A DNA stretch of 32,000 bases from an archaeon (lineage in GTDB: Archaea; Asgardarchaeota; Thorarchaeia; Thorarchaeales; Thorarchaeaceae): positions 1 to 32,000 of the forward strand of contig JAJRZD010000077.1 in assembly GCA_024275415.1 (NCBI GenBank), given 5' to 3'. Made by a program: the position numbers and the translations under genes. Every line of letters starts with the position of its first letter. Positions within the stretch are counted from its first letter, which is position 1. The notes beneath the pieces were generated by a model that saw only the letters and a list, made by a program, of their open reading frames with translations, made no database searches and was not told the origin of the DNA. Positions 12,305 through 17,379 of the stretch are shown here, piece after piece.

Positions 12305-13468
12305 TCACACCTGTCTTGTTGTGACCCCGCCCGGAATCGAGATCTTAGTGACAGTGGGAATATTTCCCGTCTGGCTTTCGTATTCTCTTGAAATAGTATC
12401 CATGAACGTACGCATGTTCCTCTCCTTGACTAATGCGATGATATTTCCCCCGAGCCCAGCGCCAGACATGCGTGCACCCAATACGCCATCAATTCTACTT
12501 GAAGATTCAACTAGGAGGTCTAGATTCGGATGTGATACCTCGTATAGGTCACGTGAAGACGCATGGGACTCTTTCATGAGTTCACCAAATCGTGCCAAAT
12601 CTCCTTCTTTAATTACTGCAGCTCCCTCCTTGACACGTGCATTTTCCATCACGATATGTCTGACACGATCGCTCTCAGTTTCATCGAGGATGTCATCTAC
12701 CTGAACAAGCTGGGCGTTGCTCACCTCGCTTAGACTGTGGATGTCCCATCCGCTTTCTTGCAAATGGTTCAGGGCCTTGATGCACTCACTTCTTCTTCTG
12801 TTGAGCACATCGCTCGCCTCCCTTGAAACCATCGAATCAATCACAACAAATGACGCTTCAAACTCGAATGGGATGTCGTAGGTGTGCATACTTCTACAAT
12901 CAATCCCTAGCAGGGCGTCTGATTTTCCAAGCTGCGATGAGAACTGGTCCATTACTCCGCACGAGATACCACAGAACACCCTCTCAGCTTCGAATGCTAG
13001 CATTGCTGCTGATTTGGGTCGTATACGCAATCCATTCAATGCAGAGATGAGGTTGAGAAGTGATACTTCCAACGCTGCGGACGAGCTCAATCCTCCTCCA
13101 ATAGGGATATTTCCATGAACCACCGCAGAAACGCTTCTGAAGTCGTATCCTCTTCTAGCGAGTGCCCACAGAACCCCTTTCACATATTTCTGCCATGTGT
13201 CGTCCGGCTCTAAGACTATCTGGATTGGATCCACGGAGAGGCTTTCATCCATATCCAATGCATACAGTGTGGTTCGCTCTGACAGTGTTCCTACCGACCA
13301 GATGTATCTGTCAATTGTGGCTGCAAGCACGAAACCTGCATTGTAATCAGTGTGATTCCCGAGCACCTCGATCCTTCCTGGTGCCCTTGAGCAATACACA
13401 TCCTGCCCTGATACATCCACTAAGTCTGAGAGATAATGAATCATACCCTCAAGCGTAATCGAATTCAT
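12305..13468 (-). CDS. galK: Galactokinase
   Basis: RAPGRIEVLGNHTDYN, GHMP motif PIGGGLSSSAA, CGVMDQ and GARMSGAGLGG. ATGA overlap with the galT stop. Confidence 0.95.
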   Translation of the reverse strand: MNSITLEGMIHYLSDLVDVSGQDVYCSRAPGRIEVLGNHTDYNAGFVLAATIDRYIWSVGTLSERTTLYALDMDESLSVDPIQIVLEPDDTWQKYVKGVLWALARRGYDFRSVSAVVHGNIPIGGGLSSSAALEVSLLNLISALNGLRIRPKSAAMLAFEAERVFCGISCGVMDQFSSQLGKSDALLGIDCRSMHTYDIPFEFEASFVVIDSMVSREASDVLNRRRSECIKALNHLQESGWDIHSLSEVSNAQLVQVDDILDETESDRVRHIVMENARVKEGAAVIKEGDLARFGELMKESHASSRDLYEVSHPNLDLLVESSSRIDGVLGARMSGAGLGGNIIALVKERNMRTFMDTISREYESQTGNIPTVTKISIPGGVTTRQV

Positions 13469-14043
13469 ATAGCGTCCCTCAGCTCTTTTGCCTTCTCTTC
13501 AGGAGAAGAGTCATTTGTGAATGTCCATGCCCCCGATTCGACACCTGCTAAGTATTTCAACCGTGCCCTGTCTCTCCAAGGCGGATAGAACTCCACATGG
13601 AAATGCCAGTAATCGTGATTGCCCCGCGTTGGGCGTGTGTGAAGAACCATCACATATGCCAGCTCGTCAAAAACCGCAGCAAATCGTTTGATCGTATCCG
13701 CAATGATCTCCCCGAACTCTCCGATGGTATTTTCAAGATCGCTGATACTCTGGACATGCTTTTTTGGATAGATATGTACCTCGTAAGGAAGTCTGGCCCC
13801 ATATGGGATTAGGGATATGAAGTGTTCGCTGTCATTGATCACCCGCTCCCTTGTCTTTAGCTCATTCTTAATGGCGTCACAGACAAGACAGAGACCCACT
13901 TCATCAAGGTAGTGCTTGAACTGATCAATCTCGGTTCTGACACGTGGGGGGATGAATGGTAGCGCATATGCCTGAGCATGAGGGTGGTTGAGGCTGACCC
14001 CGATTGCTTTCCCTCTATTCTCGAACTCCAGCACATATTCGAT
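13465..14043 (-). pseudogene. galT: Galactose-1-phosphate uridylyltransferase, 3' fragment (interrupted by insertion)
   Basis: IEYVLEFENRGKAIGVSLNHPHAQ (HPH nucleophile motif) and HFHVEFYPP...KYLAGVESG. It joins the 5' fragment in frame when 2119 bp are removed. Confidence 0.93.
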
Positions 14044-14126
14044 ACCCCCTCGTCCTACTGCTACGAATTGCCAACGGCTTACCCCGTTCGTTGGCAACTT
14101 TGCAGGACGGACGAAAGGGAGGGGGC
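14044..14126 (-). ncRNA. Candidate 83-nt hairpin RNA (or ssDNA hairpin) at the distal end of the insertion
   Basis: Three stacked stems of 7, 8 and 11 bp with three G.U pairs that work only on the minus strand. It starts about 24 nt downstream of a TATA box and ends on the junction T. Confidence 0.5.
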
Positions 14127-14149
14127 GACTCGATAGCACTTTTTTCATC

Positions 14150-14157
14150 TTATATAA
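14150..14157. promoter_or_regulatory. Palindromic TATA box TTATATAA (potentially bidirectional) inside the passenger DNA
   Basis: Self-complementary 8-mer, 24 nt from the hairpin 5' end on one side and 29 nt from ATG 14186 on the other. Confidence 0.5.
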
Positions 14158-14185
14158 TCCTCACGCTGTGCCAGGACAGGTGGAC

Positions 14186-14305
14186 ATGCCTTGGAGAAAC
14201 GACGACTATACTTTCCAGTTCGAGGAGGAAGAGGAGGTCGCGGCTGTCATGGACGACGACGGGGAAGTGCTTGCCGTCGCCTATAGAGACCCTGACTTTA
14301 TCGAC
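14186..14305 (+). pseudogene. 5' fragment (40 codons) of an acidic foreign-looking gene, truncated at the IS607 right end
   Basis: AGGTGG RBS-like site, then MPWRNDDYTFQFEEEEEVAAVMDDDGEVLAVAYRDPDFID. 14 of 40 residues are D/E and 8 of 8 Asp codons are GAC. The coding character stops at the CC core (14305-14306). Confidence 0.55.
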
Positions 14306-14480
14306 CGTTGCCCGAAACTTACCCAAATGGGACAGTATTCCCAATGGTGTTCGGTTCCTGATTCATCGAGGTCTGCTCGGTTGTCAACCCCGAAGGATCG
14401 ACTAGGAGTCTCGTGTCCTCTCCACAGGCGTTTTGTGTCTCCGTCCAACTGGCGGCGACCAGATTATTCGCAGCATTCAA
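14285..14480 (-). ncRNA. Predicted TnpB omega RNA (scaffold overlapping the tnpB 3' end plus about 20 nt of guide); boundaries approximate
   Basis: Inferred from the known IS605/IS607 architecture, where the omega RNA overlaps the tnpB 3' end and the right end and the guide is the flanking DNA. Not directly observed. Confidence 0.55.
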
Positions 14481-15548
14481 GTCACGGTCAATGACCAGTC
14501 CACATTTCTCACAGACATATGTTCTGTCTGACAGTGTGAGATCCGTCTTGATATGACCGCAACCTGAACACATCTTACTCGATGGGAAGAACCTCGGAGC
14601 TATCACCAACTCAGAGCCATACCATAGGCTCTTGTACTCTAGCTGTCTTCTCATCTCCCAAAATCCCACGTCAGCGATGTTTCTCGCAAGTCTATGATTC
14701 TTCATCATCCCAGACACATTCAAGTCCTCAATCACTATCCGGCTGTGGTTCTTGGCCAGTCGTGTTGTCATCTTATGAAGTGTGTCTTGTCTGATATTAC
14801 GGATCTTGAGGTGAAGTCTAGCCAGTTGTCTCTTGGCCTTCTCTCGGTTCTTAGAGCCTTTCTTCTTTCGTGATAGTTGCCGTGATAATCTCCTCAACTT
14901 TCGTAGTCTGCTGTCCAATGCTCTGGGATTAGAGAACGTTTCTTTCTCAGATGTCACAGCCAGACGCTTGATCCCTACGTCAACTCCAATAGCAGGGCCA
15001 TCATTTATCGGGACTTCAATCTCTTCCTCTACAGCCACAGAAACGAACCATCTATCTGCTGTTCTTGAGATTGTGGCCGATAGGATTCTTCCAGAATGAT
15101 ATTGCTCTCGTTTCTCCTTGATGCGTATCCTACCGATTCTTGGAAGTTGTATTGTATGTCCAATAAACCTGATCGTCCCAGTTAGTCGGAAACTATCATG
15201 TACTCCTTTCTTTTTGAACTTCGGAAAACCAGCATTCTTCGCTCCATTTCTAATCCTACGAAAGAAGTTCTTGAACGCCTTATCAAGATCCCTTAGAGCC
15301 TCTTGTGGTGCACATTTGGAACATTGATACATCCATGAGAACTTGGTTTTCTTCAGACTGTTCAAAAGTTTATGTTGTTTCATGGCATCAGTGAATCTGT
15401 TATTCCCTTGGTTATTCTTGTATAGAGTGATACGTTGCTCAAGACCCCAGTTATATGCGAACCTTGCTACACCAGCATGTCGTGAAAACATTGTCCGTTG
15501 TTCATTGTTCGGATCAAGTTCATATTTGTATGCCATGAAGACCATCAA
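14319..15548 (-). CDS. tnpB: TnpB RNA-guided endonuclease (IS607-associated)
   Basis: N-terminal AYKYELDPN...AGVARFAYNWGL. RuvC D (GVDVG), E (IVIEDL) and D (DRDLNAA) are all intact, with a zinc finger CSGC...CEKC. Confidence 0.95.
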   Translation of the reverse strand: MMVFMAYKYELDPNNEQRTMFSRHAGVARFAYNWGLEQRITLYKNNQGNNRFTDAMKQHKLLNSLKKTKFSWMYQCSKCAPQEALRDLDKAFKNFFRRIRNGAKNAGFPKFKKKGVHDSFRLTGTIRFIGHTIQLPRIGRIRIKEKREQYHSGRILSATISRTADRWFVSVAVEEEIEVPINDGPAIGVDVGIKRLAVTSEKETFSNPRALDSRLRKLRRLSRQLSRKKKGSKNREKAKRQLARLHLKIRNIRQDTLHKMTTRLAKNHSRIVIEDLNVSGMMKNHRLARNIADVGFWEMRRQLEYKSLWYGSELVIAPRFFPSSKMCSGCGHIKTDLTLSDRTYVCEKCGLVIDRDLNAANNLVAASWTETQNACGEDTRLLVDPSGLTTEQTSMNQEPNTIGNTVPFG

Positions 15549-16108
15549 CCTTTTTTAGCAGCCTCCAATGCCCGTTTAGCACGATTCCTTGCAGAGCGCT
15601 GTCCATATAATCTTGCACAGAAACTTGTCAGAACATCAATCATATCTTGAACAAGGTCATTAACACATTCTGTTTGGTTTATTACTCTGATCTCTCTACC
15701 ACATGATTCAAGTGCATGAGAAATATATTCAAAACCAAATCTTGTCAGTCTGTCCTTATGCTCTACGATTATGATAGATGCAGACGGGTCCTTCAATATG
15801 TCCAACATCTTCTTTCGTTTCCCGTTCATTCCAGAACCGATCTCTGTTACCTCTTTTATGATTGTTAGACCATTAGAAGCAGCATAATCCCGAAGTCTTT
15901 GTAATTGTCGTATCAGATCTTCCTTTTGAGATGTAGAAGAAACACGGGCATAAAGAACAGCATTATTTGTAATGGTTGGGATCTCATGGACAAGAATAGT
16001 ACCCGTTGCTAGTTGTTCTGTTGGTCTTGGAAGATTTCCAGACCTATACAAACGGTAGGCTGTTTTATAATCAATCCCATGTTTTCTTGCCCAATCAGAT
16101 AGTTTCAT
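15545..16108 (-). CDS. tnpA: IS607-family serine transposase TnpA
   Basis: N-terminal MerR-like HTH (MKLSDWARKHGIDYKTAYRLY), catalytic YARVSS, EIGSGMN, EHKDRLTRFG and DVLTSFCARLYG. Confidence 0.95.
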   Translation of the reverse strand: MKLSDWARKHGIDYKTAYRLYRSGNLPRPTEQLATGTILVHEIPTITNNAVLYARVSSTSQKEDLIRQLQRLRDYAASNGLTIIKEVTEIGSGMNGKRKKMLDILKDPSASIIIVEHKDRLTRFGFEYISHALESCGREIRVINQTECVNDLVQDMIDVLTSFCARLYGQRSARNRAKRALEAAKKG

Positions 16109-16126
16109 GTATATCAATCCATATTA

Positions 16127-16143
16127 GGTATTATTTGGTATTA
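16127..16143 (-). repeat. IS607 left-end direct repeats (TAATACC x2, 10-bp period)
   Basis: GGTATTA occurs at 16127-16133 and 16137-16143 on the + strand. IS607 TnpA is known to bind short direct repeats in the left end. Confidence 0.5.
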
Positions 16144-16162
16144 ATCTTTTCTACTGTTGTTA

Positions 16163-16522
16163 ACCCTCTTTTGCCTCAAGATCATTGAATACTCTGATAT
16201 ACTCCCGAAAGACCTTCTCCAATTGAGCCCTATCCATCATCTCAATCTGTCTGTCGTGTTCACGGGACTCGATGATGACCTTACAGTACCCGTGCGCACT
16301 GGTTCCTATGACCAATTCTGAGTCCAAACGTACAGGGTGATCATCGGGCTGGAGCGCAGCATACCTGTTTTTGAGAGTAAGAACCTCCCAGTCGCCTTTG
16401 GTTTCCGGTTGTCCTGGGCAGAAGGGACAAGGTCTCTTTTCGTCCTGAAACGGTCGTGTCGCTCGGTTAGGTGTCACAATGACCCATTCACCAAGCATGA
16501 TATTCCATCGGAGTTCAGCCAT
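16163..16522 (-). pseudogene. galT: Galactose-1-phosphate uridylyltransferase, 5' fragment (120 codons, then a stop supplied by the IS left end)
   Basis: MAELRWNIMLGEWVIVTPNRATRP, CPFCPG, NRYAAL and GYCKVIIESREH are GalT N-terminal motifs. Confidence 0.93.
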
Positions 16523-16623
16523 TGCCTGCACCAATCTCTTCCTTTTCATTTCGCAAGTAGATTGATTAAGGTGACGCAAGGCACCATTGCTGTGAACATT
16601 CACTGACTCTTTGGTGGTACCTG

Positions 16624-17379
16624 ATGAACCAAGATCTCGTATTGCAGATTGAGCGCATAAATGCCGATATGTGGGTTGCAGAAGAGAACCACACGTTAGG
16701 TGGTTGGGTGTTGCGGTCGAATAGGGATGTGACATGGCGAGCCAACAGCGTTCTGCCCATGTCCTCACCCGGAATTGGACTTGACGAAGCAATCCACTAC
16801 TGTGTCGATTTCTATAAATCAAGGGATATCACCCCAAAATTTCAGCTTACCGAGTTCAGCCAGCCATTGGGACTTGATTCCATCCTTGAGCAGAAAGGAT
16901 GGAGGAAAGGGATTGAAGTGGACGTCCAAACGAAAGACATCAGCAAGTATGAGCCTATGTCATTAGAATATCAGGTGGACATCCTTGAAAGTCCCAGTTC
17001 GGAATGGCTAGATTGCTTTTTTGAGGGCACAGGGCATGATTCTCACGATCTTGAAGTGCGGCGTGAACTCATGCTTCGTTCCAATGTCCACAAGGCGTTT
17101 GCTCAGATTAGGGTCGGTGACGTCGTAGCATGTGTCGGAGTTGGGATGGCATTGGATGGATGGATTGGTCTTTTCCGAATTGGCACAAGACCCCATTTCA
17201 GGAGGCAGGGCCTTGCCCAAAGACTCAGCGAAGGGCTTCTCGAATGGGGATTGAGCAAGGGTGCATTTCGCGCCTTTCTACAGGTCGAGTCTGACAACGA
17301 CCACGCGAAGAAGCTCTACGCCAAGCTAGGTTTTTCCTCGCTCTACATGTACTGGTATCGTTATCTTCCTGATGAATAG
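16624..17379 (+). CDS. GNAT family N-acetyltransferase (tandem GNAT-type)
   Basis: TWRANSV; acetyl-CoA motif IGTRPHFRRQGLA; AFLQVESDNDHAKKLYAKLGF. Confidence 0.92.
   Translation: MNQDLVLQIERINADMWVAEENHTLGGWVLRSNRDVTWRANSVLPMSSPGIGLDEAIHYCVDFYKSRDITPKFQLTEFSQPLGLDSILEQKGWRKGIEVDVQTKDISKYEPMSLEYQVDILESPSSEWLDCFFEGTGHDSHDLEVRRELMLRSNVHKAFAQIRVGDVVACVGVGMALDGWIGLFRIGTRPHFRRQGLAQRLSEGLLEWGLSKGAFRAFLQVESDNDHAKKLYAKLGFSSLYMYWYRYLPDE

Follow-up and report, generated by a model that had tools for sequence, protein, structure and literature searches.

The galT gene of this archaeal contig is interrupted by a mobile element, and exactly at one of the two insertion junctions lies an 83-nt hairpin with a TATA box beside it. 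The locus therefore raises the question of what such a structure is doing at the outer edge of a transposon. The first-pass annotation of the window (the whole 32,000-nucleotide stretch of DNA analysed here, hereafter the 32-kb window) had offered two answers: a small RNA travelling with the element, or a structured pseudo-end used by its transposase, TnpA. We addressed the question by fixing the boundaries of the insertion, locating the conserved ends of the element family, and asking where the hairpin lies relative to both.

Insertion boundaries and canonical ends of the element

All genes at the insertion locus lie on the minus strand, and galT is split into two halves:

16163..16522, minus strand: N-terminal half of galT, carried by the ORF 16822..16160; Pfam profile matched up to position 150
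13465..14043, minus strand: C-terminal half of galT, carried by the ORF 14148..13465; Pfam profile matched from position 150
16163..16166, minus strand: left GGGT copy, on the galT side of the left junction (flank GAGGG)
14044..14050, minus strand: G-run AGGGGGT (with G14051, GAGGGGG|T), right junction with galT and putative outer (surrogate) crossover site

The sequence is GAGGGT|TAACAACAGTAG across the left junction and GAGGGGGT|ATCGAA across the right one. GGGT is present at both, and deleting the 2119 bp between the two copies (16162..14044) yields a galT that is gap-free against five same-genus orthologues; the joint is scarless and shows no target duplication, which is the terminus and target arrangement of IS607 elements. 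The final GGGT of the hairpin (14047-14044) is the exact junction with galT, bearing out the earlier claim that the 3' GGGU of the hairpin is the junction repeat itself.

The inserted DNA is a single-copy IS607-family element, with a serine-recombinase TnpA, a TnpB and a RAGATH-18-like guide-RNA scaffold:

15545..16117, minus strand: tnpA, IS607-family serine transposase, 190 aa (NF033518, 186.3 bits against a cut-off of 110; Pfam Resolvase)
14319..15548, minus strand: tnpB, 409 aa
16103..16162, minus strand: left end, TTAACAACAGTAG...TTAATACC-N4-AATACC, conserved in relatives
14305..14459, minus strand: omega/reRNA scaffold and canonical right end ...TAAGTTTCGGGCAACGG (26 relatives aligned; model 77.8 bits; RAGATH-18)

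At 16162 the element has the left end seen in its relatives (TTRCARCAGTAG...TTAATACC...AATACC). Left flanks were compared across seven family members (window 16163-16167, L132, L133, L135, L004, L012 and L014) and read GAGGG, TCGGGG, GTGGGG, GTTGGG, ATAGGG, AAAGGG and GTAGGG, all ending in a G-run, while most right flanks in the family start with T. These flanking sequences suggest a GGG|T target and an NNGGG-type TAM for this archaeal IS607 clade.

At the other end, more than 30 copies from Asgard genomes and metagenome contigs have ...CAGGAACCGAAC...TAAGTTTCGGRCAACGG in common and diverge directly past CAACGG, the next base usually being T, which places the canonical right end at 14305. Alignment of 26 copies delimits a conserved block of about 155 nt (window 14459..14305), with a terminal stem CCGAA/TTCGG around a variable helix. 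A covariance model built for the right end recovers the true one with 77.8 bits, matching 14305-14366 only, and finds no match in 14044-14304 at E ≤ 10. Within the scaffold, Rfam RAGATH-18 matches 14355-14428 on the minus strand with 27.2 bits (E = 0.0064), below the gathering score of 44.9. The inserted DNA nevertheless ends at 14044 and not at the conserved right end of the family; 14304..14044 (261 bp) is therefore extra, and the hairpin forms the far end of this passenger.

Other members of the family provided further observations on its ends. Gene-less mini-copies of 217-350 bp retain both ends together with the entire guide-RNA block of ~155 nt (L004, L012 and L014, in Asgard genomes G391, G118 and G396; also L006-L013, L022 and L025-L032), and some carry a TTTTTATAC box just 5' of the guide-RNA block. 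In the 350-bp mini-copy L004, joining the flanks at the canonical ends restores a 151-aa open frame. One metagenome copy (L058:3726-3760) has CAACGG doubled at its right end (CAACGGCAACGG), and another contig (L060) bears two right ends, at 743 and 3746, 3 kb apart and in the same orientation.

The hairpin and the 261-bp passenger

The following features lie within the extra DNA:

14044..14304, minus strand: passenger, the DNA separating galT from the canonical right end; specific to this copy (no homologue; occurs once in the genome)
14044..14126, minus strand: hairpin, an 83-nt imperfect palindrome (RNA and DNA folds of both strands, window ranking)
14140..14145, plus strand: T6 tract, 13 nt past the palindrome, a possible archaeal termination signal in the donor context
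14150..14157, no strand assigned: palindromic TATA box TTATATAA, at a distance of 24 nt from minus-strand G14126 and of 23 nt from plus-strand G14180
14180..14304, plus strand: open frame of about 41 acidic codons, starting at GTG14180/ATG14186 and running straight into the right end
14285..14304, minus strand: position of the omega RNA guide, here occupied by fixed passenger sequence (divergence among relatives sets in immediately past CAACGG)

The hairpin is real, unusual and unusually stable, and its sequence and coordinates are as first annotated. The predicted RNA fold comprises three stems, an 11-bp basal, a 4-bp middle and an 11-bp apical one (26 bp in total), with a 12-nt loop, and the centroid structure of the minus-strand RNA is the version with a one-sided bulge, in agreement with the three stems of about 26 bp drawn previously. 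With three G.U pairs, the minus-strand RNA reaches an MFE of -39.5 kcal/mol (z = -4.0 relative to dinucleotide shuffles), with 1 shuffled sequence in 200 reaching such an energy. Among the 6384 83-nt minus-strand windows of the 32-kb window it ranks first by energy (GC-corrected z = -4.5), and the same scan of the plus strand ranks it second. The plus-strand RNA refolds at -37.8 kcal/mol (z = -3.75), and folds with DNA parameters are about equal for the two strands (-20.7 and -21.5 kcal/mol). Both strands fold because the inverted repeat sits in the DNA. The orientation-specific structure previously read from the G.U pairs does not survive this comparison: three G.U pairs and 1.7 kcal/mol are weak grounds, and the hairpin is not clearly strand-specific.

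We then asked whether the hairpin belongs to the element family. It lies 178 nt beyond the canonical right end, where the scaffold also ends. A covariance model of the hairpin found nothing in 98 loci encoding TnpB relatives (best E = 1.4) or in 85 genomes of the same family. A pattern keeping the arms and the loop motif gave 13 matches in the genome collection, all of them chance matches with no extended stem, and none in either the metagenome or the viral collection. The repeat of GGGTAAG-N5-GGCAA, noted earlier as shared with the right end (14324-14308), is indeed present in the hairpin with identical spacing and 12 of 17 positions matched. Its significance is another matter, since 42 of 300 dinucleotide shuffles of the hairpin (14%) reach 12/17 matches against the final 62 nt of the right end, and the right-end model finds no match there; the GGGT of this motif is moreover not conserved in more distant relatives, which have GCAT or GTAT. 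The likeness of CAGTAG to the left end amounts to no more than a 6-mer. We also considered the hairpin as a 3' stem of the TnpB guide RNA and rejected this, as the scaffold of relatives ends at 14305. The omega/reRNA scaffold is the block 14305-14459; the hairpin is absent from the 98 loci and unmatched by the right-end model. From these comparisons, the hairpin is most likely not part of the element family or of its guide RNA.

The passenger as a whole is equally solitary. It has no second copy in its own genome, where element, hairpin and guide-RNA block occur once each, and no homologue in 400 genomes of the phylum. A blastn search of these 400 genomes with the 301 nt from 14330 to 14030 returned only the right-end block and A-rich chance matches; the matches were many, and confined to the first ~35 nt around the tnpB stop codon. 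The guide sequence (14304..14285) has no second match in the genome. The GC content of the passenger, 54% (52% without the hairpin), is only mildly unusual for the genome and thus says little on the origin of the DNA; as a sign of foreign origin we set it aside as not decisive.

The acidic open frame, of 40 aa, had no match below E = 0.18 in 86 family genomes and none among 5.8 billion proteins (longer proteins only). Against 1.84 billion representatives it gave two matches, each falling on 'VDxDGxVLA', a generic motif of large, repetitive proteins resembling surface proteins, and neither is informative; back-translated patterns gave 0 matches in the viral collection. It is probably the 5' fragment of a gene interrupted earlier by the element. 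Read on the plus strand, where the TATA box, a perfect palindrome, starts 4 nt past the T6 tract, the passenger looks like an ordinary compact intergenic region followed by a gene start.

Two coincidences at this junction were also recorded. TATCGA occurs on the minus strand just before the hairpin (14131-14136) and again across the junction into galT (14039-14044); this is probably chance (estimate about 0.1), as conserved galT coding sequence accounts for the second copy. Also on the minus strand, the frame from ATG14148 reads stop-free through the hairpin into the C-terminal half of galT (13465-14148, 227 aa). This too is likely chance, a run of 35 stop-free codons having an estimated likelihood of ~0.19; the ATG follows the TATA box by 2 nt and so precedes the start of any transcript initiated from it.

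Origin of the hairpin at the junction

Archaeal TATA boxes lie about 24-27 nt upstream of the transcript start. One reading is that the box drives a minus-strand transcript from near G14126, the hairpin being either a small RNA or the 5' leader of a transcript running from the insertion into the galT remnant and galK, which lies directly downstream. The distance holds as first annotated, the last minus-strand base of TTATATAA (14150-14157) being 24 nt from G14126, and a purine-rich flank (GAGGA) upstream of the box on the minus strand fits this direction, as does the 1.7 kcal/mol by which that strand, with its three G.U pairs, folds better. The direction assigned to the box does not follow from its sequence, however: as a perfect palindrome it suits the plus-strand start at GTG14180/ATG14186 equally well, and the fold is symmetric between strands under DNA parameters. 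No T-run follows 14044 on the minus strand and a scan for bacterial-type terminators returned 0 sites, so that a discrete 83-nt RNA would be left without an evident 3' end. The Rfam scan of the hairpin found nothing at the gathering threshold; its E-value scan returned only the ssNA-helicase motif (RF03070), at chance level. ARAGORN found no tRNA or tmRNA, C/D-box or H/ACA features were not present by eye, and with no homologue found in the searches above there is no covariation. An expressed RNA is, on this sequence evidence, unlikely; the small RNA travelling with the element loses its footing with the 98 related loci that do not contain it, and nothing in these mostly negative results supports a new RNA class.

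We instead favour a history in which the hairpin is the outer end of 261 bp of flanking DNA, carried into galT by the IS607 element after exchange at a G-run, and put the probability of this reading at roughly 0.55. The element would earlier have sat beside the 261-bp stretch at another, donor site. There, TnpA would have exchanged the left end not with the right-end GG but with the G-run GAGGGGG|T, 261 bp past the right end; exchange between the left end and this outer G-run would have produced a 2119-bp circle, which would then have entered galT at GAGGG|T through an ordinary GG exchange. The exchange may also have cut short a longer palindrome, the 5' arm (GCCCCCTCCC) being longer than the surviving 3' arm. 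That the hairpin ends exactly at the junction would follow from the position of the G-run, which makes up the 3' side of the basal stem, and from a possible truncation of the palindrome there by the exchange. On the plus strand the donor order would have been palindrome, T6, TATA box, and an ORF start 23 nt on, the layout of a compact archaeal intergenic region in which the 3' end or regulatory palindrome of one gene precedes the promoter of the next. The TATA box would then have served the plus-strand gene, and the hairpin would have no present function for the element.

What is known of the enzymes accommodates such an exchange. IS607 TnpA has a strict need for GG and prefers (G)GG or TGGG targets, the element is excised as a double-stranded circle, and a second DNA free of TnpA can be captured by a filament of the enzyme assembled on one end (PMC6188088; bioRxiv 10.1101/2023.11.20.567912). 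Here, the outer junction GAGGGGG|T resembles the G-run left flanks and targets of the seven family members, and not the right end of the family. IS607 transposases also bind short phased repeats inside the ends (PMC6188088; bioRxiv 10.1101/2023.11.20.567912), and in the Clostridium botulinum IStron deletion of the right end abolished excision, with 60 bp of that end needed for full activity (bioRxiv 10.1101/2023.11.20.567912). Exchange 261 bp past the right end would therefore be rare. Several further points weigh against flank capture. It is a single case, and we infer the order of events, no donor site having been found. The same strand of the passenger offers further GG and GGGT sites, and nothing explains why the last one was used. 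The purine-rich GAGGA upstream of the TATA box mildly favours minus-strand transcription, and it is somewhat surprising that a passive passenger should contain the most extreme fold of the window.

Alternatively, TnpA might recognise the palindrome itself, as duplex or cruciform, and hence possess a second, outer right end. Exchange took place exactly at the base of the palindrome, which contains the GGGTAAG-N5-GGCAA of the right end and the CAGTAG of the left end, and its 11-bp perfect inverted repeat could bind a dimeric helix-turn-helix protein. Such specific recognition appears doubtful all the same: the motif likeness stands at chance (42/300 shuffles), its GGGT gives way to GCAT or GTAT in more distant relatives, the right-end model does not match, AATACC-type left-end repeats are missing from the hairpin, and no other copy among the 98 related loci has a structure of this kind. 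The substrate of IS607-type enzymes is duplex DNA, engaged through a GG core and short subterminal repeats in direct orientation, and not single-strand hairpins of the IS200/IS605 kind (PMC6188088; bioRxiv 10.1101/2023.11.20.567912), and the paper on the end complex, in which TnpA binds direct repeats on duplex DNA, never mentions hairpins (PMC6188088). The structured pseudo-end of the first-pass annotation can therefore be retained in part. The inserted DNA does end at the 3' G-run of the hairpin, 261 bp past the canonical right end, but use of the structure by TnpA, a serine recombinase (NF033518), finds no support, the likeness to the right end being at chance, and the term holds only in the sense of an exchange at the G-run of the hairpin. 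We consider it distinctly doubtful that the palindrome functions as an outer transposon end, with an inverted repeat capped by a G-run enabling IS607 TnpA to exchange beyond the right end of the element.

The remaining explanations place the 261 bp elsewhere in the history of the locus. The element could have inserted with its canonical ends and received the 261 bp later at the right-end GG, for instance from a small TnpA-made circle or another mobile piece; the stretch abuts GG at each end (CAACGG|T, GGGGG|T), and a GG-to-GG exchange could place it there. This would require two events at one dinucleotide, by DNA that has neither left-end-like nor right-end-like sequence of the IS607 family and no second copy in the genome or elsewhere, and we regard it as improbable. 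It is very improbable that the hairpin is what remains of a divergent second right end of IS607/TnpB type, or of a guide-RNA stem-loop, situated downstream in the donor locus: the parallel is a loose one, a stem closing a loop that ends in GGGTAAG and is followed by GCAA, much as in the canonical terminal stem CCGAA/TTCGG, and the right-end model does not match even with local alignment, while the pattern built on these features returned the 13 chance matches and no real relative. A chimeric join in the assembly is hardly credible. The genome is a metagenome-assembled draft of 127 contigs, yet a chimera would not place the same GGGT at both junctions or allow removal of the insert to restore galT exactly.

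Consequences and comparison with known systems

If flank capture is correct, this locus is a natural case of an IS607 element moving adjacent DNA by strand exchange at a target-like GG that lies past its right end. The new insertion site does not supply the TnpB guide of this copy, whose sequence is locked within the passenger. Canonical excision, left end to right end, would consequently leave GAGGG and a perfect 20-nt guide match in galT, whereas precise excision of the 2119 bp would restore galT with a joint that TnpB would not re-cut. Were the palindrome a working outer end, the element could capture and move neighbouring DNA, here with a promoter that may read into galK, and would keep a fixed guide and target pair for TnpB wherever it lands.

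Mobilisation of flanking DNA through a surrogate or missed end is familiar from the alternative right ends of ISEcp1, the one-ended transposition of IS91/ISCR and the 3' transduction of L1. Helitrons likewise move flanking DNA by reading through past their own 3' hairpin (PMC4778049). In all four, as proposed here, element and adjoining DNA move as a unit with the normal end unused; they do so by DDE, HUH rolling-circle or retrotransposition chemistry, whereas here it would be a serine-recombinase GG exchange. Flank capture itself is thus known for other transposon classes, and a literature search returned no report of it for IS607 or serine-recombinase transposons, which would make the present example a modest novelty, a single case of a known behaviour.

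Two other systems resemble the hairpin in form. The subterminal hairpins of IS200/IS605 elements, which come as matching left and right hairpins with a Y1 HUH TnpA, are also stem-loops near a transposon end; in contrast, TnpA is here a serine recombinase, the hairpin sits past the canonical end, and none of the relatives has it. The Rfam ssNA-helicase motif (RF03070) shares a 9-bp stem, a 12-13-nt loop and a GUAGCA-type tandem tail, but at 17.2 bits (gathering score 41.5; E = 1.5) the match is at chance level and there is no helicase context here.

The closest comparison set is that of IS607-family elements with a TnpB and a RAGATH-18-type guide RNA (ISFba1, PMC11061315; CboIStron, bioRxiv 10.1101/2023.11.20.567912; IS607/IS1535/ISC1926, PMC6188088). 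In common with these, the present element combines a serine transposase with TnpB, lacks terminal inverted repeats and target duplication, has GG at either end and in the target, and carries a guide-RNA scaffold ending at the right end; unlike them, this copy extends for 261 bp past the right end and is closed by a palindrome. In bacteria, RAGATH-18 forms the core of the guide RNA of IS607 TnpBs, for which AGGAG or GAGGG serves as TAM (PMC11061315), and the G-rich left flank of this copy, GAGGG, is one of these reported TAMs. The scaffold here overlaps the last ~140 nt of tnpB, whereas bacterial reRNAs are separate from the coding sequence (PMC11061315).
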